24,000 nt of DNA, from positions 15,249 through 39,248 of the forward strand of contig JAFRIR010000042.1 of assembly GCA_017432685.1 (NCBI GenBank). The letters are read 5' to 3'. The notes beneath the pieces are model-generated. The model saw only the letters and a list, made by a program, of their open reading frames with translations. It was not told the DNA's origin and ran no database searches. Made by a program: the position numbers and the translations under genes. How positions within the stretch are numbered: the stretch's first letter is position 1; each line of letters starts with the position of its first letter. This stretch comes from Flexilinea sp. GTDB taxonomy: Bacteria > Chloroflexota > Anaerolineae > Anaerolineales > Anaerolineaceae. Below, one piece after another: positions 1-16,516 of this stretch.

Positions 1-3000
1 TTTTGTTGCCGGAACTAATCCTGTCTCTATCGCATCGCGGCTTTCCGAAATAATATTTTTCGGTATTTCACGATATCCATTGAAACCGGAATCCATTTTG
101 AATTCCTGCAAATCTGAAACAATATTTGATACGGATGACTCCGCTTCGCTGAATCCGCTGACCATTGTTTCGGTAAATTCAAGCGGTTTTGCCTGGGTGA
201 GCTGGGTTTCCACCTCTGTAACCAGGATTTCCGCGGCTTCTGCGGCTGCATCTGCAAATGGATTGTCTGTATCGCTTATCCCGTTCGCAGCGGTAATATC
301 ATACATTCTCTGCTGATATTCTTTTGCTAATTTCTCTTGTGCCTCATCTAAATCCAATTCACCCAGATACTCGCCGAATGTAGCAAACGGATTGTCACGC
401 ATAAATTCATCGAATCCATTTTGCAATGATCCGACAAATTCGACAGCATCTTTCGCGGATAATTCAAATTCGCCATTGGAAATAGATGACAGCATGTCAG
501 ATGTACTTCCGGCGGTCGTACCAATCTCGGTCAGTGTATCGCATAATTCTACGCCCTGCTGTTTGAAATAATATTCGGCAACGGCGATCTGCTCTTCCGT
601 GAAATCTTTTCGATGCAAATCAAAAAAGTCCATTGCATCTAAAGACTGTTTTTGATATTCTTCATACATCCATTCCGGCGTAAAGTCATAATAGTGTTTG
701 ACGTATTCCGATAAAGGTAATTCTCCGTAGCCGCCGTTCCCGGTATACCCAATGCCATCCAGGATTTGCAGCATGGCATTTCGCACATCGTTGCTTGCCC
801 AAAGTTCAGGGTAAGTCTTTTCCATGTAATTGACTAAATCCCAGCCATTCCAGGAATCGCCCTTACCTGCGGCGGTCATATTGCTGTCGAAGTTGTGCAG
901 CGTTACAAGGGCGTTGTCCACGGCTGCAATTCCGTATTTTTGTTTGTATTCCTGCGTCTTATCAAATTCTTTTTTGTGATCATCCCACCAGTTTACAATT
1001 GCATCCCCGCCGGGAATAATCGATCCAATGCCATGAATTACCGCTGTCAATACATTTGCAAACAGGTTTTCTATCGTGAGTATCAATGAATCGATCAACC
1101 TTTGACTGGCATCAGCAAGATTTGAATAATCGCCTTCCAATTTATCAAAATTACCTGAATATAAATCGACAAATATATCTTTGATACTGTCCAATAAATT
1201 GAATAATTCTCTGACATTCCCCATAATGTCTGTAGCCGCCTGCCCAATTCCTTTGATAGCGGGGGGAACAGCGTTTAATATCGCAGTTCCGACGATGGCA
1301 GCAATGATCCCGAGAAGTTCTAACGATCCCCTGAAATCTTCAATTGCTTCGTCATCAAAGATTTCCTCGAATTTTGTTCCTATTTTTTGAAGGGTTTCAG
1401 TAATTGAATCAACGATATCTTGAATCTTTTCCTGTAAATATTCAAGGCCCTGTGTGATTGTCTCTCTGTTTTCTTCGCCGAAGATATTTACCAGCACTTC
1501 GGTAATGCCGGATTGAAGTTCTTTTCCTAATTCTTCTCCGACAGCTTCTAATCCGCCTTCACCAAAGGCCTTTTTTAGATTTTGCGTAAATTCGGTTCCT
1601 ATGACCGAATCAGAAAAATCTATCAGCCCTTTTACAATGTTTTCGAGTATTCTGTGTCCGATTTCTTCGAATGCCCCGGCACGATCCCCGGATGTCAGCA
1701 TTTCATTGATTTGACCTGCAAAAACTTCACCATCCGCTCCGCCGCCACCGATCCATGTGATCAGACCATCCCAAATCTTAGTGCCGATGGTCGTTCCGAC
1801 ACCCGACCATCCATCTGTTTCAAAGGATTTATTCAATTCGTTTATGAATTCATTTACCCTGTTTTCAGCATCAGTACCGAACAGAATACCAACAACATCA
1901 ACAGCTCCCTGCTGTAATGCGGCTTCCCATGTTCCTTTGTTTTCATTTACGTATGTTTCTAAATCAGTTGTTATTTTATCGAAAACACCTGCTAATCCGC
2001 CGTTTTCGTAAGCATTGCCGATTTCATTGACATATTTTTCCGTGTCTGCAATTGCTTTTTCTGCGTTGGCTTTTGAATCTTCACCAAACAGGACGCCGAC
2101 AACATTAATCGCCCCGCTCTTTATCGCGTTGTACCATTCTTCTTTATGGGCAGCAACCAGATTTGTTATATCAGTGGTGATCTGTTCAAATACCCCGGTA
2201 AGACCTTCTTTTTTGTAGGTAACACTCAGATCCTTGAAATAGAGTTCAATAGCCGACAGATTCTTCATGAATGTCCGTCCGGCATCTTCCCCAAAGAATC
2301 CGGTGATCAGCTGTCCCGCATTTGCTTTGATTTTTTCGTAAGCTGTCAGGAAACTTTGTTCCAGATATTCCCCGATGTCGTCGCCAATCGTCCGTAATGC
2401 TCCTATTATTCCGCCTTCTTTATAAGCGGCCACAATTTTATCTTTGTACGCAACAATATCCGCAACGACGTTTTCGATATCGGTTTTTATTTTTGTGAAC
2501 ACGCCTTCAATTCCGCCTTCTTTGAAAGCGTTGATGATATCGGTGACGTATTGAACAGCCGGATTATGAGCAATGTTTATTTCAAACAGATTTTTGAACA
2601 TGGTCTTCATTCGCTGAATGATGCTGTCCAATTCTTCTGCTTTGATAATTCCTGACAAACCTTTATTTTTGTCCCAGGCTTTCAGAATATTTTTGTAGGC
2701 ATCGCTTGCGGATGTACTGATTTTCTCCCATACTCCGGACCATTTCTTCTGTTTGAATACAGCATACAGATCGGTAACATAATCCTTCAGTTTCCCGACC
2801 CGTTCCTGAATATGGAACAGGTTTTTATTCCATGCCAAACCCAGCGCGGCTCCGGCAACAGTAAGCCCGGCGACGGGGCTTGTCAGCAGATTTGTAAGTA
2901 ATCCGCTGATTTTTGATATCGTGCTTACAGCCATCGCCGCGGTGAATGCGATTCCAATTCCTTTGATGGCGTCAATGATTTTGTCCTTGTTCGTCAGGAA

Positions 3001-4236
3001 TTTATCAACATACACTTTTATGCTGCCTAATTTCTGAAGCCAGTCATCAGCAAATTCTTCACCGCCGAGATTTTTCAGAAAATATCTCGCCGCATCCAAT
3101 TTCAAAGATTTTCCGCTGAAGAAATCTCTCAAATTGTTGAGTGCACGCATCATATTGCCGTTTTCAAGTTCGGCGCCCAGCTTTTGCAGCGGTTCAATGG
3201 TCTTTTGCACCCAATTGTTTATATTTTGGCCCCATTGCGTAAACTGGCCGCCCGTCAGAAGTTCCATAAGGTATTCGATATACGGCTTCAGAGTTTTGGA
3301 TAATGTTTTTGATGCTTCCAGAAACAGGTCATTGAGTGCGTTGTCTTTAATATCACCCCAGGAATTCTTCAGCCCGCCGATTGTAGACGCCATTGCCTCC
3401 ACAGAACCGCCGTAATTTTCACTCGCATACTGTGACAATGCATCATAGAAATCCTGAATCTGGATTTTCCCGGATTTGACTGCATTATTAAACGCATTAT
3501 GATCCTCGATAACCATATTGTACTTTTTGCCGATAATGTCAAAAATGGCATTCATTTTGTCTCTGCCAAATCCATTATTGGCAAATTGATTCAAGTCCTG
3601 CTGAGTGATCTTACTTGTAGCTCCGGTCTGCGCAAGTGCCCTGGAAAAACCGCCCATCATTTCCTGTGTCATTCCAAGCCCGGAACCAAGTTCAAGAATT
3701 GCTTTTGTGGTTTTCTTTGTTGTTTCAATATTCTGTCCGCCGAGATTCGCATTTGTCATAAATGAATTGATGACTTCGGTATACTGATAAGGCGAAATCA
3801 AAGATATTTCTTTGAACCATGCCATCAGTTCATTTTTTTCTTTTTCTGCCTGCGCCATTGCACTCTGGTAACTTGATGCTCTGCCGGTCTTATACATCTC
3901 TGTAGCAACGATGGATTGCAGCTTCATTTCTGTGTTCTGCATATTTTCCATTTGAGCATATAATTGTTTGCCAAACTTTGAAACACGTTTATAGGCGTTT
4001 TCAAAGCCGTCGGCAATAAGATTTCCGGCTGCTACCAGACTTACACCCTTCAGCGCATTGTGCAGCTCCCCAACCGCGGATGACGTGCTTTTGATCGACC
4101 TTTCTGCATTCCCGCTGACAGAGAAGGCTTTATCCATCTGTGCGGCTGTAGACCGTACCTTCGCGGTCAGGTCGTCCAGTGCGCTCTCGAATTGTTTCGT
4201 ACTTGCATTGATGTCAATAACAACGTTGTCTGCCAT
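1..4236 (-). CDS. Phage tail tape measure protein, N-terminal 1412 codons (3' end lies beyond the left window edge)
   Basis: The minus-strand frame set by ATG 4236-4234 has no stop codon down to nt 1; I checked it triplet by triplet. An SD-like AAAGGAAG lies 8 nt upstream and an in-frame stop lies at 4249-4251. The translation starts MADNVVIDINASTKQFESALDDLTAKVRS. It contains a TP901-type TMP-core-like segment (MGGFSRALAQTGATSKITQQDLNQFANNGFG), a central hydrophobic stretch (GIGIAFTAAMAVSTISKISGLLTNLL...GAALGLAW) and tandem degenerate ~60-aa repeats (EGG[IL]xGVFxKIxTDIxNxV). It is absent from the ORF track because it has no stop inside the window. Confidence 0.85.
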   Translation of the reverse strand, partial: MADNVVIDINASTKQFESALDDLTAKVRSTAAQMDKAFSVSGNAERSIKSTSSAVGELHNALKGVSLVAAGNLIADGFENAYKRVSKFGKQLYAQMENMQNTEMKLQSIVATEMYKTGRASSYQSAMAQAEKEKNELMAWFKEISLISPYQYTEVINSFMTNANLGGQNIETTKKTTKAILELGSGLGMTQEMMGGFSRALAQTGATSKITQQDLNQFANNGFGRDKMNAIFDIIGKKYNMVIEDHNAFNNAVKSGKIQIQDFYDALSQYASENYGGSVEAMASTIGGLKNSWGDIKDNALNDLFLEASKTLSKTLKPYIEYLMELLTGGQFTQWGQNINNWVQKTIEPLQKLGAELENGNMMRALNNLRDFFSGKSLKLDAARYFLKNLGGEEFADDWLQKLGSIKVYVDKFLTNKDKIIDAIKGIGIAFTAAMAVSTISKISGLLTNLLTSPVAGLTVAGAALGLAWNKNLFHIQERVGKLKDYVTDLYAVFKQKKWSGVWEKISTSASDAYKNILKAWDKNKGLSGIIKAEELDSIIQRMKTMFKNLFEINIAHNPAVQYVTDIINAFKEGGIEGVFTKIKTDIENVVADIVAYKDKIVAAYKEGGIIGALRTIGDDIGEYLEQSFLTAYEKIKANAGQLITGFFGEDAGRTFMKNLSAIELYFKDLSVTYKKEGLTGVFEQITTDITNLVAAHKEEWYNAIKSGAINVVGVLFGEDSKANAEKAIADTEKYVNEIGNAYENGGLAGVFDKITTDLETYVNENKGTWEAALQQGAVDVVGILFGTDAENRVNEFINELNKSFETDGWSGVGTTIGTKIWDGLITWIGGGGADGEVFAGQINEMLTSGDRAGAFEEIGHRILENIVKGLIDFSDSVIGTEFTQNLKKAFGEGGLEAVGEELGKELQSGITEVLVNIFGEENRETITQGLEYLQEKIQDIVDSITETLQKIGTKFEEIFDDEAIEDFRGSLELLGIIAAIVGTAILNAVPPAIKGIGQAATDIMGNVRELFNLLDSIKDIFVDLYSGNFDKLEGDYSNLADASQRLIDSLILTIENLFANVLTAVIHGIGSIIPGGDAIVNWWDDHKKEFDKTQEYKQKYGIAAVDNALVTLHNFDSNMTAAGKGDSWNGWDLVNYMEKTYPELWASNDVRNAMLQILDGIGYTGNGGYGELPLSEYVKHYYDFTPEWMYEEYQKQSLDAMDFFDLHRKDFTEEQIAVAEYYFKQQGVELCDTLTEIGTTAGSTSDMLSSISNGEFELSAKDAVEFVGSLQNGFDEFMRDNPFATFGEYLGELDLDEAQEKLAKEYQQRMYDITAANGISDTDNPFADAAAEAAEILVTEVETQLTQAKPLEFTETMVSGFSEAESSVSNIVSDLQEFKMDSGFNGYREIPKNIISESRDAIETGLVPATK

Positions 4237-4270
4237 AATTCGATCTTCCTTTCAGATGGATTTCGATTAA

Positions 4271-4307
4271 TAAAAAAAGAAGACTGCCGTTTCAGAGCAG
4301 CCTTCTT
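4271..4307 (-). terminator. Rho-independent terminator hairpin in the leader of the tape measure gene (cassette A)
   Basis: The minus-strand RNA reads AAGAAGGCUGC-UCUGAAACG-GCAGUCUUCUU. This is an 11-bp stem (4277-4287 / 4297-4307) with one G.U pair that would be an A.C mismatch on the plus strand. It is followed by UUUUU. The hairpin lies 35-70 nt upstream of the ATG at 4236. Confidence 0.6.
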
Positions 4308-4330
4308 AGGGTCTTTTTTTCTCTATATCT

Positions 4331-4358
4331 ATTATATCATAACAGAGAATAAGAGCAA
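4331..4358 (-). promoter_or_regulatory. Candidate extended -10 promoter (TGATATAAT) with a weak -35, cassette A
   Basis: On the minus strand TGATATAAT occupies 4339-4331 and TTGCTC occupies 4358-4353, with a 16-nt spacer. The same 11-mer ATGATATAATA recurs at 15901-15891. There is no experimental support. Confidence 0.4.
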
Positions 4359-4561: not shown

Positions 4562-7500
4562 CTACACGCAGACATAATAAACTCTATTTGTTTCCAGTGA
4601 TGATGTTCCGGCAGTTAAATCTGTCGTTGATATAGAATAATAATTCGAGTAATTTCCACTATGCAATAGTTTATACCAAGTCGGTGCTGAAGCTGAAGAT
4701 GTTGCAGTTTTATATTCCCCGTACCCAACATACCAATCAGCCGTGCGGTGCAAATTTACGATATAAGATGCCAAATAATTGCTATGAGACGAAACAAAAC
4801 CGTTATACCATCCATTTGTTGGTCCGCCTGATGGGGCGGATTGGTCAAAAGTTACATATTTACTTAATGGCTGTGTCGTAGTAAAACTATAGCTTGATTT
4901 ATGCAAGTTTGTTGATGTACTTATTGTCCATGATTTTTTACTTCCAGCACTGGTTCCTGTTGTATCTCCTGTTAGCGTTACCGTTGCGTCAGAAGAGAAT
5001 TGCGTTGCAGTCGCAGCATTCCCCGTACAACTTGTTGAGGAACCGTCACAATTACCAGTTATGTTTGCTTCAAGTTTTCCCGTTGCACCATTCCAAGCAA
5101 TACTTCTTGCAAAACTATTCGTTGTACGACCTTTTTCCCCATATCCAATATACAACCTATCATCACTGGATGAATAAGTTGATATTGCTATTCTGCCATT
5201 TTTTGTCGGGCCACATATCCAACCACCATAAGTGTTTGCATCATCTGTAAGTGTTACAACAGAGCTGGTCAGACTGTTCACCCAGGTATTACTTCTGTAA
5301 CTTGATGTCATTGCTCCCGTCATCGTTCCGCCAGCCAACGGAAGATAACTGTGCGTATGGCTTGAAGCAGCCGCACCGATATTCGCCGGAGTGATCCCAA
5401 GATTCGTCCGTGCATTGGCGGCTGTTGTGGCGCCTGTGCCACCGTTTGTAATGGCGACGGTTCCGGTGACATTGGTTGCGTTTCCGTTGAGCTTACCGTT
5501 AAACTGAGCTGCATATACGTTTCCATTGCGACAATTGATGGAAACAGCGTTCGTTCCTGTGTACGTTGCTCCTGAACAACCGGTAGTAAATGACACACCA
5601 TACCAGGAATTAAACACGAGATTATTCAATGCACCACCGACACCGTTCGCAGCATCATTTGGTCCGTTATAAATAGAATTTTGTCCTTTGCTATTGAAAT
5701 TTAATGCTCCCGTCATCGTGTCGCCGGATTTGCTGACTTTTCCGCTCAGTGCCGTATCCATTTCCGATTCAGTATAATATCGATCGTCATGCGTGTGACC
5801 GCTGTCAGCCTTTCCCGACAGTCCGTCCTGGACAAACGCCGTTGTTGCAATCTGCGTTGTATTCGTGCCGGAAGCAGCCGTTGGAGCAGTCGGCGTTCCT
5901 GTGAAATTCGGCGAAACCAGCTGCGCTTTTGATTTCAGTTCATTTGCGATCTGCACGACCGTTGCCTCACTCGAATCCCATGCTCCAGCGGGATGGTCAA
6001 TTTCATACCGCCACAATTCGTTATCATAGATCACATAATCACCGATGGAATAGGTCACAGCATCACTGAACTGTGTCGCAACGGCATCATTGCTGATTTT
6101 CCCGTCAAGAGCATCTTTCAGGTCGGTCTGAGATGTGATATTTCCGAAAATCGCGCCCCAGTTCACAGCACTGACAAAATGTCCTTCGCTGTCAGCGATC
6201 ATCAGCCACGTGCCGTTCCGCCTTCCGTAATAATTCCCGTCAAACGGAGCATCGCTCTTTCCCGCCAGTGACCCGAGGTCTGAGACATTGGCTTTCCGTT
6301 TCAGCTCTCCGGCTGCTGTCACCGCTGAAACCAGTGTGCTGTCCCACGTTCCCTCCGCACTGTGGGGAGTTGTAAACCGATACAGTACGCCATCCTTCAG
6401 GACAAAGTCCCCCGCTTCATAATCCTGAACCGCAAAATTGTCGGCGACAATCGCCTCAACTTCCGAATCATCCCAGGGTGTGGATGTTACTTCATGTGCG
6501 GATGTAAAAATATAATAGGAATTGTCATAAACGCAGATATCCCCGACAGTGTAATCCTGCGTGCTGTCAAATTCACCGGCTGGAATTTCTTCTGCTTCCT
6601 CAGCATCAAAGGCGCCGGAACTGTGCGCGGATGTGAACTGATACAGGGCACCGTTATAAAGAACATAATCATCTACGTCATATGCCTGTTCACTGCTGAA
6701 TCCGTTGACAGACAATTGTGATACCTCATTATCATCCCAGGGCGTTTCTGCCGTATGGGAAGCGGTGAATAGATAATACGCATCCTCATACATGACAACA
6801 TCCCCGACAGCATATTCCGACGTATCGTCGAACAGCTCTGCTGTGATTTCCGTGACTTCATTTACATCAAAGGCGCCGGAGCCGTGTGAAGATGTAAATT
6901 GATACAGCGTATCGTTGTATATCACATAATCACCGATAGCATAGGATTCCTCGCTGTCAAATTCCTCAGCTGTCAGTTCCGATACGTCGTCATCGTCCCA
7001 CGGTGAATGCAGAGTATGCTCTGCGGTAAAGATATAATAGGCGTCCTGATATGTGACGATATCCCCGGCGGCATAATTCTGCGTGTCGTCAAAATCCTCC
7101 GCGGTGATTTCCGTGACTTCCGTATCATTCCATGCGTTCTGAGACGGGGAGGTGAATCGGTAGAAGGTATTGTTGTAGATACAATAATCCCCAACATTGT
7201 ATACGGCTGCCGGATCATATGCAGCGCAGAGATTCGGGTCAAAATCCAGATAGGCCATTTCGCCAAGGGCATCCATCTCCCCCTGCACAAAGGCAGTCGT
7301 CGCGATTTGCGTGCTGTCATCCCCGACAGCAGGGGTTGGAGCCGTCGGTGTTCCGCTCAGTGCAGGAGAGACCAGCGGAGCTTTTGCGTTCAGTGCGTTC
7401 TGCAAATCTGTTTGATTTGCAAGACTGCCCTGAATTTCGCCCCAGTCCAGATGGGTACCGGATTCAAAATAGATATACTCATCCTCATAAGAAGAATGGA

Positions 7501-8704
7501 TCCCCACTCCATGAGGCCCCTGCGGGATAGCAAAGTTGAGGATCGCCGCATAGGCTGTTCCCGAGTTCGTCACTCTCGCCTGTTCGCCGGAGGCAAGGGT
7601 CGTGACACTTCCGACACTGACCGTCGCTGCATCTCCTTTATCTCCCTTCGGTATGCCAAAATTGAACACGGCGTCATGACTGTCGCCCGAATTGGATACG
7701 GTCGGATTCGATCCTTCCGGGAGGACTGTAGCTGTCCCGGCCGTAATGGTCGCCGCGTCTCCCTTATCTCCTTTATCGACAATTCGCAGCCAGTATGTGG
7801 TGTTGGATAATGCAGTTTCCGCGGGAACATTGCGTTTGGCAAGGTATCCGTTCCCGGCATCATAGACTAAATCCAAACGGGTATATGCTATGGAATTTGA
7901 CCACACACCCACAGGATGGATAGCAATCTGTACGGATTCGGGATTGTCCAGTCCCGCGTTATTGGTCCAGCTGAGAATCCCCGCCTCATCAACGGACGGT
8001 TCATAGTACCAGCCCGCATCCAGGATGATCTCGTTACCTTCCGTGGCACTGTACGGGTCGGGGAGATACCTTGCCCCTGCCCCTGCTCCATTCGGGATGT
8101 AGAAATCGAAGATAGCATCGTTTACAGTCCCCCTCATGACCACACTTGCGGGCGTTCCCGCGGGTACAGTGGTCGTATTCCCGACCTGCACGGTAGCTCT
8201 GTCCCCCTTTTCCAGCACAAAGTCCAGAATCGCATCGTAAATTGTCCCGCGGTTTGTGACAGATGGAGACGATCCCGATGTCACATTTCCTACCCGAACG
8301 GTCGCCGCTTTCCCGTAATTCACGGAATTGGCGCAGATCACCCGCTCCATGAAAGCATCTTCGTATACGATGACAAAGAATGCCCGCATCCCGGTATACT
8401 GAAAGGAATATGTTCCGCTGATGTTTCTGCTCCATTCGGTCGATACGGCAAAGGCACGCCCTTCGTTGGTCATATACTGCACAAAGGCATAATGCTGATC
8501 CGTACAGATCTCTCCGTTCCGGTACAAGTCCATGGTCAGCGTCCCGTCAGGGACTCCTGTCATGGTAAGCCGCAATTCCCATACATCGCCATCTCTCCCC
8601 TGCGGGCCTGTCGCTCCTGTAGCCCCCTGTATGCCCTGTTTTGTGTACTGCATAACAATCGGGTTCTCGTTTACTTGAATCATGATCCCTGTTTTCTTTG
8701 CCAT
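4562..8704 (-). CDS. Large phage tail fibre / receptor-binding protein (~1380 aa)
   Basis: The ORF track gives 4562..8758. I prefer the internal ATG at 8704 (MAKKTGIMIQVNENPIV), which is preceded by GCGGGGTAAAA. The protein has a short collagen-like GxY run (GIQGATGATGPQGRDGD) and repeated beta-rich modules (TVxVGxVTxxxxxxxxVTNxGTxxDAIxxFxIPxG). It has 8 copies of a ~43-aa YxxGDxVxY...FTxxH...WD repeat. It also carries motifs common in phage fibres (GHTHDDRYYTESE, NGGTGATTAANARTNLG). Its C-terminus is homologous to that of the 555-aa fibre. The stop codon is TAG. Confidence 0.8.
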   Translation of the reverse strand: MAKKTGIMIQVNENPIVMQYTKQGIQGATGATGPQGRDGDVWELRLTMTGVPDGTLTMDLYRNGEICTDQHYAFVQYMTNEGRAFAVSTEWSRNISGTYSFQYTGMRAFFVIVYEDAFMERVICANSVNYGKAATVRVGNVTSGSSPSVTNRGTIYDAILDFVLEKGDRATVQVGNTTTVPAGTPASVVMRGTVNDAIFDFYIPNGAGAGARYLPDPYSATEGNEIILDAGWYYEPSVDEAGILSWTNNAGLDNPESVQIAIHPVGVWSNSIAYTRLDLVYDAGNGYLAKRNVPAETALSNTTYWLRIVDKGDKGDAATITAGTATVLPEGSNPTVSNSGDSHDAVFNFGIPKGDKGDAATVSVGSVTTLASGEQARVTNSGTAYAAILNFAIPQGPHGVGIHSSYEDEYIYFESGTHLDWGEIQGSLANQTDLQNALNAKAPLVSPALSGTPTAPTPAVGDDSTQIATTAFVQGEMDALGEMAYLDFDPNLCAAYDPAAVYNVGDYCIYNNTFYRFTSPSQNAWNDTEVTEITAEDFDDTQNYAAGDIVTYQDAYYIFTAEHTLHSPWDDDDVSELTAEEFDSEESYAIGDYVIYNDTLYQFTSSHGSGAFDVNEVTEITAELFDDTSEYAVGDVVMYEDAYYLFTASHTAETPWDDNEVSQLSVNGFSSEQAYDVDDYVLYNGALYQFTSAHSSGAFDAEEAEEIPAGEFDSTQDYTVGDICVYDNSYYIFTSAHEVTSTPWDDSEVEAIVADNFAVQDYEAGDFVLKDGVLYRFTTPHSAEGTWDSTLVSAVTAAGELKRKANVSDLGSLAGKSDAPFDGNYYGRRNGTWLMIADSEGHFVSAVNWGAIFGNITSQTDLKDALDGKISNDAVATQFSDAVTYSIGDYVIYDNELWRYEIDHPAGAWDSSEATVVQIANELKSKAQLVSPNFTGTPTAPTAASGTNTTQIATTAFVQDGLSGKADSGHTHDDRYYTESEMDTALSGKVSKSGDTMTGALNFNSKGQNSIYNGPNDAANGVGGALNNLVFNSWYGVSFTTGCSGATYTGTNAVSINCRNGNVYAAQFNGKLNGNATNVTGTVAITNGGTGATTAANARTNLGITPANIGAAASSHTHSYLPLAGGTMTGAMTSSYRSNTWVNSLTSSVVTLTDDANTYGGWICGPTKNGRIAISTYSSSDDRLYIGYGEKGRTTNSFARSIAWNGATGKLEANITGNCDGSSTSCTGNAATATQFSSDATVTLTGDTTGTSAGSKKSWTISTSTNLHKSSYSFTTTQPLSKYVTFDQSAPSGGPTNGWYNGFVSSHSNYLASYIVNLHRTADWYVGYGEYKTATSSASAPTWYKLLHSGNYSNYYSISTTDLTAGTSSLETNRVYYVCV
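5351..5485 (-). repeat. ~135-bp segment shared with the 555-aa fibre gene (direct repeat, copy 1)
   Basis: This aligns by eye with 10271..10404 and includes a 31-bp identical core, ccggagtgatcccaagattcgtccgtgcatt. It encodes NVTGTVAI(T/A)NGGTGATTAANARTNLGITPANIGAA. Confidence 0.7.
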
Positions 8705-8800
8705 TTTTACCCCGCAAGTTCGATGTAGTCGATATCTTTTATTCTGCAATAATGCCATAGATGGAATTTACCCCCATGGCATTTTTCGTGTTTCTTCCCG

Positions 8801-10005: not shown

Positions 10006-11673
10006 TTATGAATATACGAAATAAACAGCATTTGTTGTTAAAGCAGAAGTACCTGCTGTAAGGTCTGTAGTAGAAATGGAGTAATCAGGTTTTGTCGCAA
10101 TAGCTGTGATACCGCAAACTGTTTTTAAATTTGCCGGAGAAATTGCCTGTATTACCTGACTGAATCCATCGCAAGGTTGCCAAGCACATAAATAACTTGC
10201 AGTGGTTGCTTCACCTGACCATTTCAAGCCTAATGTATATGATGAATTCGTGGCATCTTTCACACTGTTATGTGTGTGGCTTGTTGCAGCCGCGCCGATA
10301 TTAGCCGGAGTGATCCCAAGATTCGTCCGTGCATTCGCGGCAGTCGTTGCTCCTGTACCGCCATTGGCAATGGCGACGGTTCCTGTTACATTGGCGGCAT
10401 TTCCGCTGATGCTACCAGAAGCCGTACCATTCCACGACCAAACATTATTAACGCATTTTAATTGCGCCGTACCACTTGATGAGCCATTTCTTGTGATATA
10501 AAAATTTCCGCTATTGTTGAAAATTCCCCATGAATTAGCAGATGTACCAGAATCCCCGGTGTTATCTGCTCCGCATAATACTACAGTACACCAGTTGTTG
10601 TACATGTGAATGCGTATTCCTTCATTGTAATTTCCACTGGTTGGATTGATATTTACTATACCGAATGATTTTGCATTAAGCGTTCCTGGAAAAGTCGTAT
10701 TTCCGCTCGCATCAAGCAGTGTCAGCGTTCTTGTGACTGTAGAATAAACACCTGTATATTGCCGGACGTATATCGGCTCCGTTCCATCATCCGCCGTCGC
10801 AATCTCCATCCACCCGGCATTATTTGCAGTAGCACCTACCGCAACCCGACCATAATCATTTGAACCGCCAACTAAACGTATCTGTCTTGTCCCGGTGTCA
10901 CCGTTAGTGCTGAACAGCAAATCTCCTGTCAACGTACCGCCGGATAAAGGAAGTGCGCCCAAATTAGACAATGCGCCAGCCGCAGTCGTTGCTCCAGTAC
11001 CACCATTTGCAACGGCGACAGTTCCTGTGACATTAGCTGCTTTACCGGAATAATTGCCTGCCGTATCAATATAATAATTATTTGTTGTATTATTTCCTGC
11101 ATCGATATTTGCTTTTGTGCCGTAAGCAAAGGCAAAACTTTCGTTATCGTAATTTCCAATGGCCCAACCACCGCCGGTTTTTGTCTGAAAAGCCACAGCG
11201 GGAATCCATTGGCTGGTATTTAAAGTACCTTTTTTTACATAAATCCCTGCTTGTGTACCGCCAGTCCCCGCAATCCAACTTGTACCGCTCCCAGGACTTG
11301 ATACAATTGATCCTGTCATTGTGTCCCCGGTTTTACTGACCTTCCCGCCTAACTTTGTATCCGTCTCCGATTCAGTGTAATATCTGTCATCATGCGTGTG
11401 TCCAGTATCGGATTTTCCACTGCTCAACGCATTGAGTCCGATGCTCAACGCCTGTAATATTTCACTGATAGTAACCGTCCTGACTTCCGTGCTATCCCAT
11501 GCACCTGAATCATGCGCTGATGTGAATTGATATAACACGCCATCCTTCAGAACATAGTCTCCAACGGCATATTCTTCTTCAGGCGAAAATTCATCCGCTA
11601 TCGATGCTCTTGCTTTGGAATCGGCAAAATCTCTGTATACTCCGTCCCGTAAAGTTTTTGATATATCCGCCAT
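10006..11673 (-). CDS. Phage tail fibre protein, 555 aa (paralogue of the large fibre)
   Basis: The RBS is GGGAAGGAAA. It shares several elements with the 1398-aa ORF: one YAVGDYVLKDGVLYQFTSAHDSGAWD repeat, GHTHDDRYYTESE, two NGGTGATTAA motifs and the C-terminal YSISTTDLTAGTSxL motif. Confidence 0.8.
   Translation of the reverse strand: MADISKTLRDGVYRDFADSKARASIADEFSPEEEYAVGDYVLKDGVLYQFTSAHDSGAWDSTEVRTVTISEILQALSIGLNALSSGKSDTGHTHDDRYYTESETDTKLGGKVSKTGDTMTGSIVSSPGSGTSWIAGTGGTQAGIYVKKGTLNTSQWIPAVAFQTKTGGGWAIGNYDNESFAFAYGTKANIDAGNNTTNNYYIDTAGNYSGKAANVTGTVAVANGGTGATTAAGALSNLGALPLSGGTLTGDLLFSTNGDTGTRQIRLVGGSNDYGRVAVGATANNAGWMEIATADDGTEPIYVRQYTGVYSTVTRTLTLLDASGNTTFPGTLNAKSFGIVNINPTSGNYNEGIRIHMYNNWCTVVLCGADNTGDSGTSANSWGIFNNSGNFYITRNGSSSGTAQLKCVNNVWSWNGTASGSISGNAANVTGTVAIANGGTGATTAANARTNLGITPANIGAAATSHTHNSVKDATNSSYTLGLKWSGEATTASYLCAWQPCDGFSQVIQAISPANLKTVCGITAIATKPDYSISTTDLTAGTSALTTNAVYFVYS
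10271..10404 (-). repeat. ~135-bp segment shared with the large fibre gene (direct repeat, copy 2)
   Basis: See 5351..5485. The two copies are in the same orientation and share a 31-bp identical core. Confidence 0.7.
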
Positions 11674-12089: not shown

Positions 12090-12300
12090 GCTTGACGTAC
12101 CCACGAGCTAAAGCTCGATGGGATTCTTTGAAAGAAGGTTGGTATTTAAGTCTCCACCTAACCAAAGTAGGTCAGGCCACCCTTATTCTTTGAGGGCTCG
12201 CCAAAAGCCCAATACACAGTTTTTCGTAATCGAAATTCTGCTTGCTTTTCCGTAAGATATTGGCACTGCCGTTAATGTCGGCATTCATGATGGTGCCATT
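12070..12300 (-). ncRNA. Predicted omega (right-end) guide RNA region of the TnpB element
   Basis: This call is by analogy with characterised TnpB systems, where the omega RNA overlaps the tnpB 3' end and the RE and reads into ~16-20 nt of flank. It contains the RE hairpin at 12100-12122. The extent is not determinable from sequence alone. Confidence 0.3.
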
Positions 12301-13664
12301 TTGACTTTTATACAATCCGCGGTAAATCCGTCTTCCTTTGAACTCGCCTAAATAAGGCTGTTCCGGCAAATAGACAGGCAATACATCTAAGTCAAGAAAA
12401 CTACTTTTTGAAGTATAGGATTCTTCCTGCTCGATATATTCCATACCGTATTTATCGCAGAGGTATTCAAGCTGCTGGCGAAGATCACCGTGAGGAATTT
12501 GTACAAAATTCTGGTTGTTTATTTTGCCCATATCGGAATTTTGTTTAATTCCCGGATTATATCCAAACACGATTTTTCCAATATCATGCTCAATACAGTA
12601 GTTGATAATGTACCTTGCAGTTTTTCTGATAGCGTCCTTTACCTGATTATTCCGTTTCTCTGTGATTTTGTTGATACGTTCCGTTGTATTTAGCTTTTGC
12701 TTCATAGATATAGAGCGGAGACGTGCAACTTCTTTGTTCCATTGGTGATTGATTGATTTGAGTTTACGACCGTCCACTATGAACGACGTCCCAATGGTAG
12801 TAATGCAGGCTGCTATATTGTCCACGCCGGGATCTATCGACAAAATATTGTTTTTATTTAGATGTAAATCCTCCGATACAGTTTTATATACATACTGAAT
12901 TTTGAAAACTTTACCGTGATTGCAAGGGAGAATCCGAACCTCTTTGATGACTTTGTCCTTTAGACGTTCTGGAAAAGGAATCAAGATTTCCTTTAAATCT
13001 GGATGAGCTGACCGGAAGGCTCTGCTCATAGGTACTTGAAAATATCCGTCACTGATTGATATTGCATTTTGAGACATTATCAGAGTGAACATACCACCCT
13101 TTTTGTGATAGTGTGGAATTTTTACATCGTGATAGCTGTATTCCCCTTTTTTACATTTCTTCAACAATTTGAAAAATGATTTAAAACTTCGATCCACAAC
13201 CTTCAATGTCTGCTGTGCAACACCCGCTTGCAGTAACGAATAGTTTTCGTTGGTCTTGCACTCATGGTAATTGTTTTCGTAAGTAAGAAATTTTTTTGAA
13301 TTGAAATAGCACTGTCGGATATTATAGAGAGCAACATTGTACAGATTATTGGAGTAGCGGCACATTTCCCGTAAAGCTTCGTACTGTATTTTGCTGAGCC
13401 CACGGATCACGTTGCTTTGTACTGCAAATGCTGCCATTTTTACTACCTCCTTCCATTTTAATTATTATATATTATTATACATTATTATTTAAATATCATA
13501 TGTATTTACTGATTTATTTGCGTTTTTATTTAATTTGCAGTTATTTATTTATAGCTATACATGAAGTCACCAGTACAACTTTACAGCATTATATAGAAAA
13601 TCAAAAGCGATAATCAGCTTTCATCCTCGGAGCTAAAGCTCCAAGGTTTTCAGCTTATTCAGAT
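12090..13664 (-). mobile_element. IS200/IS605-family element carrying only tnpB (IS1341-type, no Y1 TnpA)
   Basis: tnpB is flanked by related imperfect hairpins with a GCTTTAGC core, at 13625-13646 (LE side) and 12100-12122 (RE side). The boundaries assume IS608-like geometry (~18-19 nt 5' of the LE hairpin, 10 nt 3' of the RE hairpin). With those boundaries the flanking ORF fragments join in frame. Uncertainty is +/-20 bp. Confidence 0.65.
12172..13437 (-). CDS. tnpB: TnpB (IS605 OrfB-family RNA-guided endonuclease), 421 aa
   Basis: It has an N-terminal HTH_OrfB-like region (YEALREMCRYSNNLYNVALYNIRQ). RuvC-I is LSIDPGVDNIAAC (D202), followed by EESYTSK, and RuvC-III is NADINGSANI (D387). 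Length and motif order are typical of the family. The RBS is GGAGGTAGTAAAA-ATG. Confidence 0.9.
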   Translation of the reverse strand: MAAFAVQSNVIRGLSKIQYEALREMCRYSNNLYNVALYNIRQCYFNSKKFLTYENNYHECKTNENYSLLQAGVAQQTLKVVDRSFKSFFKLLKKCKKGEYSYHDVKIPHYHKKGGMFTLIMSQNAISISDGYFQVPMSRAFRSAHPDLKEILIPFPERLKDKVIKEVRILPCNHGKVFKIQYVYKTVSEDLHLNKNNILSIDPGVDNIAACITTIGTSFIVDGRKLKSINHQWNKEVARLRSISMKQKLNTTERINKITEKRNNQVKDAIRKTARYIINYCIEHDIGKIVFGYNPGIKQNSDMGKINNQNFVQIPHGDLRQQLEYLCDKYGMEYIEQEESYTSKSSFLDLDVLPVYLPEQPYLGEFKGRRIYRGLYKSQNGTIMNADINGSANILRKSKQNFDYEKLCIGLLASPQRIRVA

Positions 13665-14426: not shown

Positions 14427-14741
14427 TCAGTCCTCATACAGCACATGCAATCCGTATGACTTCGCGACGAAATGTTCTGCCTGGCATCCCCGCGATTTGT
14501 TCCATCCCCGGCAGAAATACACCGTATCGCATTTGGACATTGTGCGGAGGGAGTTACTCAGATAGTAGATCCCGGTATTCTGTACGCCGATTTTTTCAGG
14601 GTCGATACTATGCGCCTCGAACAGCGTATCATCTACGGTGTAGCCGTTGTCAATAAGCCACCGCTTGGCTTTCCCCCTGACCGCAAGGATTTCTATTGTG
14701 CTAATCCCGTTCATCGGATGACAAATCATCGCCCGTTTCAT
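14427..14741 (-). CDS. DUF4406-like (nucleoside 2-deoxyribosyltransferase-fold) protein, 104 aa
   Basis: The C-terminal pattern CDTVYFCRGWNKSRGCQAEHFVAKSYGLHV matches the family hallmark xD-x-hhhhxGWxxSxGxxxExxxAxxxGhxV as I remember it. It overlaps the Gp15-like gene by 41 nt, so the true start may be an internal Met. Confidence 0.55.
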   Translation of the reverse strand: MKRAMICHPMNGISTIEILAVRGKAKRWLIDNGYTVDDTLFEAHSIDPEKIGVQNTGIYYLSNSLRTMSKCDTVYFCRGWNKSRGCQAEHFVAKSYGLHVLYED

Positions 14742-15405
14742 TGTTTTCCCCCTGACTCTTTCGTTTGTCTTTGCTTTTTCTGCTCAGATTTACCAGTGCG
14801 TTCTTCAGATTGTCTTCCTGCTTCTGCAGCTTTTCACTCTTTGGCAGCGCAAAATCCTTTTGCAATTTCTGCACCCGGTTCCTCTCCTCTTTCGGCATTT
14901 TCCCTGTCGTCTTTGCCTGCCGCGCCCCGACCACGAAATTTACCGATGTTGTATCCGACATCATCAGCCCTTCAAACAGGGTCAGGAACTCCCACCAGTG
15001 CATATACTCGATCTCCCACAGCCGGATATGGTAGAAAGACGCGAAGGAGCAGTAAATATAAGCGGAATCGTACACAAAATCAAAGGACGGCGGTTTTGGA
15101 TGTTCCTTGTCCCGTTCCTTTCGCTTTTTGGATGCGTCATTATCCACCTTGGGATATCCGCTGTAAAACTGCGCAACGGAATCAAGAAAGTCATCAGCCA
15201 GGATGTTCCCTTTCGGGTTTTCCTTTACCACAAGATCATACAATTCCAGAAATATTTTTGTCCGGTCTTCATCGGTTGCGACAGAAAACTCTTCCAGGAG
15301 ATACCCGGCTTTCATCCATGTGCGGAAATCCGTGTAGACATCATAAGGGATGCCGTCTACCACAATGGTATCGGGCATCCCGTCCAAAAGGATATTCTTA
15401 ACCAC
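14701..15405 (-). CDS. Phage_Gp15-family protein (tail assembly, normally adjacent to the TMP), 234 aa
   Basis: The N-terminus IVVDGIPYDVYTDFRTWMKAGYLLEE resembles the Gp15 signature (G-x-x-Y-x-h-x-TDFR). The C-terminal tail is Lys/Glu-rich. It has a GTG start with no clear SD; an alternative ATG lies 9 codons in. The stop is TAG. Confidence 0.6.
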   Translation of the reverse strand: MVKNILLDGMPDTIVVDGIPYDVYTDFRTWMKAGYLLEEFSVATDEDRTKIFLELYDLVVKENPKGNILADDFLDSVAQFYSGYPKVDNDASKKRKERDKEHPKPPSFDFVYDSAYIYCSFASFYHIRLWEIEYMHWWEFLTLFEGLMMSDTTSVNFVVGARQAKTTGKMPKEERNRVQKLQKDFALPKSEKLQKQEDNLKNALVNLSRKSKDKRKSQGENNETGDDLSSDERD

Positions 15406-15415
15406 AGCTTATAAC

Positions 15416-15817
15416 TTATCGGCGTTTCTTGCCGACCTGATTGGAACGGTCGATCATATCGATCACGGGCTTGGAACGCTGGGCCAGATTGTCCAGCTTT
15501 TGCAGCGTGTCGTTATATTCCTTATCCCGCATCTCCTGGTATTCCGTCTGATAGGCATTGTCCACGCCCTTGGCAATATAGTACATACGGTTCAGATTCT
15601 CCTTGTCGCGGTCATTCGGGAAGATCTGTTTCACCGCATCTTCACCGAGCAGGATTCTCACGATGTTGTAGCTGGCATCATATGAATCCATATGCTCGAT
15701 GTTATCATTGTGGGTCTGAAGCGCATCGTCCACAGCCTGGGAACGTTCGGCGATTTCATATTCTTCCCCGTCGATCCGCACGGAGACTTTTTTCGGCTTG
15801 TACGTCAAATCAATCAT
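15416..15817 (-). CDS. Putative tail assembly chaperone, 133 aa
   Basis: The RBS is GGAGGAAATAC-ATG. The call rests on size, acidic composition and position directly upstream of the Gp15-like gene, so it is mainly positional. Confidence 0.45.
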   Translation of the reverse strand: MIDLTYKPKKVSVRIDGEEYEIAERSQAVDDALQTHNDNIEHMDSYDASYNIVRILLGEDAVKQIFPNDRDKENLNRMYYIAKGVDNAYQTEYQEMRDKEYNDTLQKLDNLAQRSKPVIDMIDRSNQVGKKRR

Positions 15818-15840
15818 GTATTTCCTCCATATAGTTAAAC

Positions 15841-15875
15841 AAAAAAAAGACAGTTAGGATAATAACTGCCTTCTT
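15841..15875 (-). terminator. Rho-independent terminator hairpin, cassette B
   Basis: The minus-strand RNA reads (AAGA)AGGCAGUUA-UUAUCC-UAACUGUCU(UUUU) followed by a run of U. G.U pairs form only on the minus strand. It lies 33 nt after the regulator's stop and 25-60 nt before the ATG at 15817. Confidence 0.6.
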
Positions 15876-15891
15876 AGGGTCTCTGCTATGT

Positions 15892-15900
15892 ATTATATCA
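15892..15900 (-). promoter_or_regulatory. Candidate extended -10 (TGATATAAT), cassette B
   Basis: The 11-mer ATGATATAATA is identical to that in cassette A. It lies 9 nt upstream of the conserved box AGACCCTAAGAAGGC (15882-15868). There is no good -35. Confidence 0.35.
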
Positions 15901-15907
15901 TTAAATA

Positions 15908-16516
15908 TCAGCGGGGATCATTTCCCGCCGCATCCTGAGAACTTTTTTTCTTTTCTATCATCTTCCACAGTCTTTTGCGTTCGCTTTCATTATCCCATAG
16001 AAAATCGATAATGCCTTTTGATATGGGGAATGTCTTTCTCGCTTCGTTTCCGTACATCAGCCACTCCTTCCCAACACCGAATCCATCTTCGATTTTTTCC
16101 GCAACGCGATCTGATATTTTGCAAAAGCCTCTCTCGATTTTGCTGTAATGCTGTCTCGAAATCCCAATTTTTTCCGCAGCTTCAGTTTGGTTCAGCTGCA
16201 ATTTTTTTCTCACAGCTCTGAGACGGGCAACAGAGCCATCGGTATTCTTTGTTTCCAGAGAAGTCGGCTTCTCGGTAAATATTGGTTCACCGGTTCCGTG
16301 ATAAAACCATTCCGTATCAAGGTGGTATACTTCACAAAACCGGTCGAACCAGGATACATCTGCTTCTCTGCACCCGGTGATATATGTGCTGACGGTTGAA
16401 CCAGAAATTCCGGTCGCCTCTCCAATTTTTGCGTTGGTCAGATGCAAAACCCTTTTTACCGCCAGAATATTTGACTTGACCGGTTCGCTTATTATGGTGT
16501 ATTTGTTTGCTTCCAT
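15908..16516 (-). CDS. XRE-family transcriptional regulator with two HTH domains, 202 aa
   Basis: Two HTH_3-like segments are present: LTNAKIGEATGISGSTVSTYITG and LNQTEAAEKIGISRQHYSKIERG. Confidence 0.8.
   Translation of the reverse strand: MEANKYTIISEPVKSNILAVKRVLHLTNAKIGEATGISGSTVSTYITGCREADVSWFDRFCEVYHLDTEWFYHGTGEPIFTEKPTSLETKNTDGSVARLRAVRKKLQLNQTEAAEKIGISRQHYSKIERGFCKISDRVAEKIEDGFGVGKEWLMYGNEARKTFPISKGIIDFLWDNESERKRLWKMIEKKKSSQDAAGNDPR

Follow-up and report, generated by a model that had tools for sequence, protein, structure and literature searches.

The DNA considered here is a stretch of 24,000 nucleotides (positions 15,249 to 39,248 of contig JAFRIR010000042.1, GenBank assembly GCA_017432685.1, deposited as Flexilinea sp.), hereafter the window, whose minus strand carries part of the tail gene region of a phage. 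Two sites on this strand—copy A (4339-4270), upstream of the tape-measure protein (TMP) gene, and copy B (15900-15836), upstream of the gp14-like and Phage_Gp15 tail-chaperone genes—share a common order of parts: promoter, spacer, 15-mer, hairpin, U-tract, ribosome-binding site (RBS), and ATG (Table 1). We refer to this composite as the cassette and to its 15-mer as the box. Judged from the comparative sequence analysis of uncultivated phages, which provides all evidence in this article, the two sites are members of a family of transcription-unit leaders in a clade of ~128-137-kb uncultivated siphoviruses, whose assignment to Bacillota as hosts is taken from the label of one metagenome-assembled genome (MAG).

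Two leader cassettes in the window

The extended -10 element of both copies lies in an 11-mer, ATGATATAATA, at 4340-4330 and 15901-15891 of the minus strand. At up to one mismatch, the window holds a single further site, which bears one mismatch and lies on the plus strand. The box AGACCCTAAGAAGGC is identical in both copies and has no third match in the 24-kb window, even with up to 3 mismatches allowed. An exact repeat of a 15-mer is on its own unremarkable in 24 kb of DNA, where rough arithmetic gives ~0.3-0.5 of them by chance. The composite cassette is far beyond chance. A covariance model (R2, from alignment A2) that was built solely from copies in other contigs, leaving out those of the window, scores copy A with 55.5 bits (E 1.5e-11) and copy B with 48.9 bits (E 5.8e-10)—the E-values of such home-made models being rough. 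The next-best match in the window reaches 10.8 bits and is merely the antisense of copy B, and a search of the window with filters off returns exactly two cassettes.

In the sense RNA, copy A folds with -16.2 kcal/mol (z = -2.3), and the 56 nt of copy B reach a minimum free energy of -15.9 kcal/mol (z = -4.0). The antisense RNAs, with -12.4 kcal/mol (z = -1.1) for copy A and -7.6 kcal/mol (z = -0.2) for copy B, fold worse because the G.U pairs turn into A.C mismatches. The stems are followed by the tails TTTTTATT in copy A and TTTGTTTA in copy B. On the transcribed strand, both copies hereby present what is expected of an intrinsic terminator—a stable, G+C-containing hairpin with an immediate U-tract—and both hairpins are also picked up by a simple terminator scan of the window.

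A preliminary description of this DNA had pointed to the common minus-strand architecture of the two loci, and all of its statements on the sequence hold apart from small differences in counting. The spacers of 16 and 9 nt are right when counted from the TATAAT hexamer; counted from the 11-mer, they amount to 15 and 8 nt. The cassette is present in the span of 4358-4271 given for copy A, but nothing conserved is found at 4358-4341, at its 5' end. A gap of 25-35 nt had been placed before RBS and ATG, whereas the distance between stem end and ATG measures 40 nt in copy A and 26 nt in copy B. That the stems need G.U pairs specific to the minus-strand RNA is borne out by the much poorer folding of the opposite strand. 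Likewise, the succession of an extended -10 promoter and, within ~50-70 nt, a strong terminator-like hairpin before the RBS finds support in the sequence conservation described below.

Table 1. Parts of the two cassettes and the genes that follow them (positions in the window)
Feature	Position	Strand	Details or basis
Copy A extended -10 TGATATAAT	4331..4339	-	TG 4339-4338, TATAAT 4336-4331; no recognisable -35
Copy A spacer AGATATAGAGAAAAAA, 16 nt, purine-rich	4315..4330	-	predicted start site and first transcribed bases (from -10 position)
Copy A 15-nt box AGACCCTAAGAAGGC	4300..4314	-	nt 1-7 unpaired; last 8 nt are the base of the terminator 5' arm
Copy A terminator hairpin AAGAAGGCUGCU / loop / GGCAGUCUUCUU	4277..4307	-	12 bp, loop 7, 1 G.U, -16.2 kcal/mol
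Copy A U-tract TTTTTATTAA	4267..4276	-	sequence
Copy A downstream gene, tape-measure protein	1..4250	-	RBS AGGAAG 4250-4245, ATG 4236; PF20155 (TMP_3) match
Copy B extended -10 TGATATAAT	15892..15900	-	sequence and family consensus
Copy B spacer ACATAGCAG, 9 nt, predicted start site	15883..15891	-	sequence
Copy B 15-nt box AGACCCTAAGAAGGC	15868..15882	-	exact match
Copy B terminator hairpin AAGAAGGCAGUUA / loop / UAACUGUCUUUUU	15844..15875	-	13 bp, loop 6, 2 G.U
Copy B U-tract TTTGTTTAAC	15834..15843	-	sequence
Copy B downstream operon start	14701..15828	-	RBS GGAGG 15828-15824, ATG 15817; sequence
gp14-like open reading frame, 133 aa	15817-15416	-	first gene after copy B
Phage_Gp15 (tail-chaperone gene)	15405-14701	-	second gene after copy B

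A cassette family in uncultivated phages

The combination of 11-mer and 15-mer, for which the preliminary description had suggested a search in related phages, does recur there: after removal of duplicates and obvious chance matches, ~45 distinct hairpin-bearing copies are found in ~35 metagenomic and viral contigs. The pattern TATAAT-N(6-24)-GACCCTAAGAAGG retrieves 13 stretches from IMG/VR, while a promoter-independent pattern, composed of box and 3' arm, retrieves 13 stretches from IMG/VR and 38 from metagenome contigs. Against 185,579 GTDB species genomes, this second pattern gives one genuine contig—2.6 kb long, phage-like, and from a Bacillota MAG—together with three chance matches. This near-absence from species genomes argues that the cassette is not a host regulatory motif.

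Single phage genomes bear the cassette repeatedly. The 136,915-bp contig IMGVR_UViG_3300021400_000128 carries at least 11 cassettes in the interval from 46 to 95 kb; the 10 kb that adjoin it upstream contain no further cassettes and no informative genes. In the 39 kb that were examined of the 127,966-bp metagenomic scaffold to which the window belongs, there are 3 cassettes, the third of which has the box GAACCCTAAGAAGGC and precedes a major-tail-like gene. Distant phages that bear Gp15 (L016-L036; chaperone identity of ~30%) show tightly packed tail genes and no cassette. Blastn against GenBank phages gives no match, and tblastn with the large terminase of the relatives finds only relatives of <55% identity and no cultured representative. 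A literature search for the cassette sequence returned no paper, and when the entire window is compared with Rfam by cmscan (E up to 1), two weak matches appear elsewhere and none at copies A and B.

The promoter and the box

In 29 aligned copies, T-12, A-11, A-9, A-8, and T-7 of the -10 element are invariant; the hexamer reads TATAAT in 26 of them and TAAAAT or TACAAT in the remainder. Upstream, G-14 is conserved in 25/29, T-15 in 19/29, and T-17 in 21/29, which yields the consensus TRTGnTATAAT, preceded by an A-rich region with no conserved -35. The extended -10 element with TRTG is a Gram-positive sigma-A promoter type, and the features that mark such sigma-A/sigma-70 promoters—a TATAAT-like hexamer, TG at -15/-14, and a -35 that is dispensable—are all present in the sequence.

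Hexamer and box are separated by 6 to 28 nt in the different copies of the family. No lower limit was imposed in this analysis, which used copies fetched by promoter-independent patterns. Exactly 6 nt are found in 13 of 42 copies, and no distance is shorter, bar one ambiguous case with an overlapping hexamer. Under a uniform model of 0-28 nt, the complete lack of spacings <6 nt has a probability of P ~6e-5. In all 13 copies with minimal spacing, the first base of the box is A. If transcription starts ~7 nt past the hexamer, a spacing of at least 6 nt implies that the box begins at +1 or later and would therefore always be transcribed.

Position 1 of the box may be A, U, or G, whereas positions 2-15 are identical in 42-45 of 45 copies. 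A test free of box ascertainment is offered by two close relatives, L014 and L015, which were fetched by homology of their Gp15 protein: both carry the exact 15-mer before the gp14-like and TMP genes, where their coding identity to the window is 64-67% at the nucleotide and 47-71% at the amino acid level. Between orthologous copies in genomes of 64-70% identity, spacer, stem top, and loop are randomised.

Two observations on box-like sequences may be added. In a tandem at L069:1052-1160, a -10 element and a degenerate, hairpin-less box, TGACCCTGAGAAGGC, are followed ~40 nt later by a complete box with its hairpin; this looks like a decayed duplicate of the cassette. Furthermore, TGACCCTAAGAAGGC occurs exactly in a different conserved context, CAACT-box-TGAAGAACTTCGGTACACTTGGCCTTTTTGGGC, in other metagenomes (L042:6045, L053:922, L065:1042, and L073:896), with neither TATAAT nor U-tract and with no match in Rfam.

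The hairpin and the leader

The register of box and hairpin is constant in every copy, and the last 8 nt of the box are part of the 5' arm. In the family alignment (A1), 94.6% of cells are paired, compared with 44-64% if the 3' partner is slid by 1-3 columns. Cells in which both partners have changed number 58, as against 20 +/- 3.6 in shuffled alignments, none of 500 of which reaches the observed value. Hence, the statement of the preliminary description that the stem tops of copies A and B differ and yet remain complementary extends to covariation across the family, with 5-7 pair types at each of the five top stem positions. The basal 8 bp behave asymmetrically. Their 5' strand is the same in all of 29 rows but one (L006:98; A to G, C to U), while their 3' strand changes from C to U, giving a G.U pair, in 8/29 copies at each of two positions. 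Rare variants of the box within the arm are compensated, as in AAGAAAGU...ACUUUCUU and AAGAAGGU...ACCUUCUU. Covariation and arm asymmetry together argue that the structure is selected in the sense RNA and that the 5' arm is constrained beyond pairing.

The stem has a family median of 13 bp and -17 kcal/mol, and 41/46 copies bear at least 5 U within the 8 nt after it. In all copies, the hairpin starts at least 13 nt downstream of the -10 element and lies within the predicted transcript, with only 7-29 nt ahead of the stem and no conserved pairing partner in them. The start codon follows 14-40 nt past the 3' arm; the hairpin ends 8-14 nt before the Shine-Dalgarno (SD) sequence, which the U-tract nearly abuts. 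The arms themselves resemble translation signals: AAGAAGG in the 5' arm is a one-mismatch SD mimic (e.g., in 4307-4277), and CCUUCUU in the 3' arm is an anti-SD mimic, complementary to AAGGAGG, that might instead form base pairs with the genuine SD located 8-14 nt downstream.

Cassettes at the starts of core operons

Every cassette points in the direction of the genes that it directly precedes, and the cassettes stand 1-12 kb apart at operon starts. The first genes behind them encode NrdG (a radical SAM protein), DUF5662, and a ParB-like nuclease; small and large terminase-like, head-morphogenesis, and scaffold-like proteins; and the major tail protein, the gp14-like chaperone, and the TMP. 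Since genes of replication type and structural genes are both preceded by it, the cassette is not a signal of late genes only. Before the major tail, chaperone, and TMP genes, the cassette is the sole promoter-like signal. An extra conventional terminator is present upstream of ~4 of 43 copies, mainly after the major tail gene, and the hairpin of the cassette therefore probably also stops the preceding operon in most cases.

On the source scaffold, in the sense of transcription, the capsid genes are followed by the third cassette, the major-tail-like gene, a conventional terminator, ~12 kb of cargo, and copy B; then by the gp14-like and Phage_Gp15 genes—with orthologues in the relatives at 63-71% and 50-61% amino acid identity, respectively—~10 kb of cargo, copy A, and the genes of the 2552-aa TMP, Dit, and Tal. 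The ~12-kb cargo comprises four large proteins with sortase, DUF285, or leucine-rich repeat (LRR) domains, three of them on the opposite strand, small open reading frames (ORFs), and an XRE-type helix-turn-helix (HTH) protein; the ~10-kb cargo comprises DUF4406, TnpB, and two CBM5/12 fibre-like proteins. In comparison with the relatives, nucleotide homology breaks off at 4339-4344 and 15882-15901, where the two cassettes have their 5' edges. At the same two places, relative L008 has no cargo, and L002 and L005 have different cargo. Cargo genes have box-less extended -10 or -35/-10 promoters, in the order of terminator, then promoter, and are not individually flanked by cassettes.

The preliminary description had also considered the cassettes as boundaries of exchangeable modules. 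The breaks of homology at both 5' edges and the cargo islands directly upstream agree with this idea, but the cargo genes themselves lack flanking cassettes; the case is circumstantial.

A conditional terminator as proposed mechanism

We consider it likely that the cassette acts as a functional promoter joined to a terminator gate in the 5' untranslated region (UTR). Here, the host sigma-A RNA polymerase would initiate at the -35-less extended -10 element, and the transcript would start at, or up to ~22 nt before, the 15-nt box (A/U/G)GACCCUAAGAAGGC. The last 8 nt of this box would serve as the 5' arm of a strong intrinsic terminator that ends just ahead of the SD of the first gene. By default, most transcripts—whether started at the cassette or arriving from upstream—would stop as ~45-70-nt RNAs. 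With the sole promoter upstream of hairpin and U-tract, expression of the operon would thus need read-through.

How read-through might be brought about is a more tentative matter. The explanation we favour, with a confidence that stays a little below an even chance, is box-addressed antitermination: a conditional terminator close to the promoter would be addressed by way of the transcribed box. One trans-acting factor would bind the box in the nascent RNA, hold the 5' arm, and so block formation of the terminator hairpin; this single factor might open all cassette-gated operons. A factor that recognises the 15-mer as RNA and competes with the stem is suggested because the constraint on the box exceeds pairing, its register to the hairpin is constant, it would always be transcribed, and its distance to the promoter is variable.

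Several points weigh against box-addressed antitermination. Start sites, termination, and read-through are all inferred from sequence. Among ~50 proteins of the window and its relatives that were scanned with Pfam and PHROG, representing at most ~40% of any genome, no antiterminator, sigma factor, or polymerase emerged as a candidate for the trans-acting factor; the relatives' proteins scanned comprise NrdD/G, an ADP-ribosyltransferase, an ADP-ribosylglycohydrolase, a DarA_C protein, a methylase, ParB-like, TnpB, an M23 peptidase, and unassigned ones. A linear RNA target of 15 nt with no conserved loop is unlike the structured targets of antiterminators such as the ribonucleic antiterminator (RAT), boxB, and put. 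The floor in the spacing could equally mean that an A/T-rich discriminator is needed, rather than that the box is transcribed, and the invariance of the box is partly inflated, most copies having been fetched with patterns that contain it. The presence of cassettes ahead of both replication-type and structural genes fits no simple temporal class. Finally, no box-specific factor would be needed if the polymerase were resistant to terminators in general, be it a modified form of the host enzyme or one of the phage.

Comparison with known antitermination systems

The preliminary description had likened the cassettes to the lambda PR'-tR' arrangement under Q-type control. In lambda PR'-qut-tR', too, a constitutive promoter of the sigma-70/sigma-A type is closely followed by an intrinsic terminator, such that a short RNA is made by default and downstream expression needs read-through. 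Lambda Q, however, is loaded by way of a DNA element in fixed register and a -10-like pause that depends on sigma; each genome has one such site, dedicated to late genes. The cassette has no such DNA element at a fixed position: besides the -10, its sole conserved element lies downstream of the predicted start, is transcribed, shares bases with the 5' arm of the terminator, and follows the -10 at a variable distance of 6-28 nt. A promoter-proximal pause hexamer is not recognisable either, as the spacers are unconserved and TAAGAA in the box lacks the essential T at position 6. Instead of a single late operon, at least 11 cassettes per genome are found, and non-late genes are among those they precede. 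Neither a Q-like Pfam or PHROG match nor a RinA- or ArpU-like gene, both of which had been suggested as worth looking for, was found among the ~50 proteins, i.e., in at most ~40% of any genome. By its anatomy, the cassette is not a member of the Q system, and the Q-type reading is not supported.

In Bacillota, transcription attenuation by BglG/SacY/LicT at RAT, by PyrR, by TRAP, and by HutP places the RNA target of the factor over a terminator arm in the 5' leader. Known targets of this kind are either structured, like the RAT hairpin and the PyrR binding loop, or consist of repeated triplets; the leaders measure at least 100 nt, and one or few operons are controlled. The cassette resembles these attenuators in its geometry, its box overlapping the 5' arm of the terminator by 8 nt. 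It differs in the linear nature of the 15-nt box, in a leader of 45-70 nt that leaves no room for an antiterminator in cis, and in being repeated throughout a phage genome. Neither an alternative hairpin of the RAT type, for which a conserved pairing partner would be expected, nor a CAT/PRD domain among the ~50 scanned proteins is found; judged by these traits, the cassette is not a RAT system.

A transcribed, promoter-proximal linear box with a hairpin that alters termination is also found in lambda nut (boxA and boxB) and HK022 put. Their hairpin or loop sequences are conserved and are not terminators; they confer processive resistance at distant terminators and occur at two sites per genome. 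In the cassette, by contrast, the hairpin itself is terminator-like, and stem tops and loops are variable. By analogy, the cassette is best described as combining a closed promoter similar to PR'-tR' with the overlap of target and 5' arm known from Bacillus attenuators, outside any Rfam family.

Alternative explanations

The stoperators of cluster A mycobacteriophages offer a reading at the DNA level. In L5, more than 20 asymmetric 13-mers lie in short intergenic spaces and at promoters, with an orientation that correlates with transcription (PMC9283540); they are bound as DNA by the monomeric, two-domain immunity repressor of a temperate phage (gp71 in L5) and permit genome-wide control by one factor. 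Accordingly, the 15-bp box might be the DNA site of a phage repressor that blocks polymerase at or just after each promoter and thereby silences the genome, with hairpin and U-tract as a separate terminator. The box is indeed an asymmetric 15-mer in at least 11 copies per genome, intergenic and co-oriented with the genes, strikingly like the stoperator pattern of an asymmetric 13-15-bp site in tens of copies (PMC9283540), and just upstream of copy B lies the gene of a 202-aa protein with two HTH regions; such a two-domain binder could in principle read an asymmetric 15-mer. Yet stoperators, as DNA sites, need neither promoter nor hairpin as a partner, whereas the box stands 6-28 nt downstream of the -10 and is joined to an RNA hairpin in unvarying register. 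A repressor site leaves the fixed 8-nt overlap of box and 5' arm in every copy unexplained, as well as the compensated changes in the arms and the fact that the box never overlaps the region from -10 to start. No repressor was identified in the DNA examined, the two-HTH protein has no homologue in that of the relatives, and there is no sign of a temperate phage, which was not found integrated in the 185,579 species genomes. On balance, we regard a stoperator-like role as improbable.

Box and hairpin could also form a post-transcriptional module of the 5'-UTR that governs stability, processing, or translation of the mRNA, termination being incidental or partial. For Bacillus mRNAs, stabilisation by SD-like 5' elements and by 5' hairpins is established, and the module might, for example, act as a 5' stabiliser against RNase J, as a site for a phage or host RNase, or as a tag that tells phage from host mRNA. 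The element would make up the 5' end of every cassette-led mRNA, it ends close to the SD, its arms carry the SD and anti-SD mimics, and all 13 copies with 6-nt spacing begin with A. A stabiliser, however, needs no conserved U-tract as present in 41/46 copies, the at least 7 unpaired nt at the 5' end are unlike a protective 5'-terminal hairpin, and the SD mimic is sequestered in a 13-bp stem. We therefore give this role a small probability.

The promoter early stem-loop (PeSL) cassettes of T4-type phages are, like the present ones, multi-copy intergenic composites of a host-type promoter and a stem-loop in large phages, and mediate indels at hot spots for cargo (PMC2839356, PMC4122927), recombination between their copies giving indels or mini-circles. 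Read this way, the cassette would be a constitutive insulator or attenuator and a recombination linker, in which the hairpin stops transcription from upstream and lowers the output of the promoter, box and -10 provide short homologies for module exchange and no specific factor is involved. This would suit the end of homology at the cassette 5' edges, the ~10- and ~12-kb cargo just upstream of copies A and B that is variable among the relatives, and the scarcity of separate upstream terminators (~4/43), according to which the hairpin probably ends the upstream operon. But PeSL stem-loops lie upstream of, within, or just before the promoter start and stop transcription from upstream (PMC2839356), and PeSLs flank small early ORFans in hyperplastic regions with no invariant linear box. 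In the cassette, the promoter precedes its own terminator, the hairpin forms part of the predicted transcript, core genes follow, and the 15-mer is fixed. With no reader of the sequence, the near-complete conservation of 15 nt beside a randomised spacer, stem top, and loop would be unexplained. Conversion tracts would not stop at 15 nt, and the single cargo genes have no cassettes at their sides. Thus, the cassette shares the repeated promoter and stem-loop with PeSLs but, by the placement of its hairpin, is not one of them, and a purely PeSL-like function seems quite improbable.

The terminated RNAs of ~45-70 nt might themselves be the products of interest, i.e., small-RNA genes whose transcripts share the 5' seed AGACCCU and act as regulators or decoys on host or phage targets. 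About a dozen strong promoters per genome would each give a short RNA with an identical single-stranded 5' segment, and in Stx phages the short transcript from PR' to tR', StxS, sets a precedent by acting as a regulatory small RNA (PMC7547250). Against this, every copy is directly upstream of, and co-oriented with, an ORF that otherwise has no promoter, which is unexpected for free-standing small-RNA genes, and the DNA examined contains neither a complementary target nor an antisense copy. Small RNAs as the main purpose are very improbable; as a by-product, they are compatible with box-addressed antitermination.

Lastly, the box could be a promoter or termination motif for a phage RNA polymerase of the YonO or two-barrel kind, the host promoter forming a separate layer. 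Large siphoviruses can encode such enzymes, with YonO transcribing the late genes of SPbeta (PMC5467207), and P23-45 has promoter motifs specific to its polymerases, while a group of its terminators shares a conserved 26-nt motif (bioRxiv 10.1101/2022.12.01.518664). But the parts examined hold no polymerase gene, the N-terminal 1412 aa of the TMP match TMP_3 only, just 7-9 conserved bases lie upstream of any plausible start inside the box, and the tightly conserved sigma-A -10 points to the host enzyme, which makes a phage polymerase signal extremely improbable.

Further candidates were rejected: a riboswitch, as loops are not conserved and Rfam gives no match; a bidirectional terminator, as the antisense strand folds poorly and has no U-tract; the box as a -35 element or T7-like promoter, since it stands at no fixed distance from a -10 further downstream and has too few conserved bases ahead of it; an IS200/IS605 end or TnpB-related element, with the TnpB gene at least 1.3 kb from either copy; a leader peptide, as there is no start codon; and an antisense RNA, as no independent reverse-complement box occurs in the window or in the other cassette loci scanned.

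Cargo and neighbouring genes

The TMP itself (4236-1 in the window, off whose end its gene runs, with the continuation at L092:14523-22181) measures 2552 aa, which implies an extremely long tail, and its residues 127-289 are the sole match to a TMP domain. Upstream of its gene, and not in the tail tip module, two tail-fibre-like proteins with CBM_5_12 domains of 1398 and 555 aa are encoded at 4562-8758 (-) and 10006-11673 (-), whose genes share repeats of 75-83% nucleotide identity (5352-5497 vs 10271-10416; 5705-5815 vs 11308-11418). The 555-aa fibre gene is preceded at 11753-11699 (-) by a box-less extended -10, TGGTATAAT, and, after ~23 nt, by a G+C-rich hairpin, GGCGCATC...GGTGCGCC, with no U-tract. 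By its sequence, this is a second kind of promoter-then-hairpin leader, located in the cargo. The opposite order is seen at 14400-14187 (-), where two terminator-like hairpins at ~14413-14375 and 14274-14256 are followed by a perfect TTGACA-16-TATAAT promoter (14214-14187) of an ORF of 124 aa.

Between the Gp15 and TMP genes, the cargo also includes a TnpB-type gene at 12172-13437 (-), encoding 421 aa with OrfB_IS605 and a Cas12f1-like TNB domain. Identical copies of this protein are present on several short metagenome contigs, and the TnpB of the 137-kb relative (L010:4340-5533) is an unrelated copy. A DUF4406 gene, nucleoside 2-deoxyribosyltransferase-like, at 14427-14741 (-) overlaps the 3' end of Phage_Gp15 by ~40 nt and is conserved in the 137-kb relative with 59% amino acid identity.

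In the ~12-kb cargo between the major tail and chaperone genes, four proteins of 1513, 527, 357, and 1392 aa with C-terminal sortase domains (17355-21896 (+), 22124-23707 (+), and on to L090:11565-17342) are fused to DUF285, LRR, Flg_new, or DUF7379, which is unusual phage cargo. The 202-aa XRE-type protein mentioned above is encoded at 15908-16516 (-), and has its HTH regions at about residues 26-46 and 97-153. Its gene, whose stop codon is overlapped by a hairpin at 15930-15909, leaves 7 nt to the promoter of copy B.

A cassette-punctuated region of the 137-kb relative encodes an ADP-ribosyltransferase of the exoenzyme type, an ADP-ribosylglycohydrolase, and a DarA_C protein (L010:2074-2967, 6287-7072, and 7091-7636). 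The ADP-ribosyltransferases of T4 modify RNA polymerase and, by this analogy, these ADP-ribosylation genes are putative candidates for modification of the host polymerase.

Conclusion and perspectives

In its widest form, the proposal would have every core operon of these phages begin with a constitutive host promoter, closed at once by a terminator with the same 15-nt RNA address and opened by one sequence-specific RNA-binding antiterminator, while the cargo ahead of the cassettes escapes this control and about a dozen abundant short RNAs with a shared seed might have functions of their own. This extended picture is rather unlikely. In practice, the cassette precisely marks where operons start and where cargo (moron) genes are inserted in an uncultivated lineage of phages, and the covariance model built here detects it virtually without background.

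Should the box prove to be the handle of a conditional terminator, then promoter, address, and terminator would together make up a compact and portable gene switch of ~60 nt. A new class of sequence-specific antitermination factors would then have to be sought in Gram-positive phages, where control of late genes is poorly understood. If true, a large phage would gate most of its core operons at the stage of elongation with one address and one factor—an RNA-level counterpart of the DNA-level silencing by the stoperators of mycobacteriophages.

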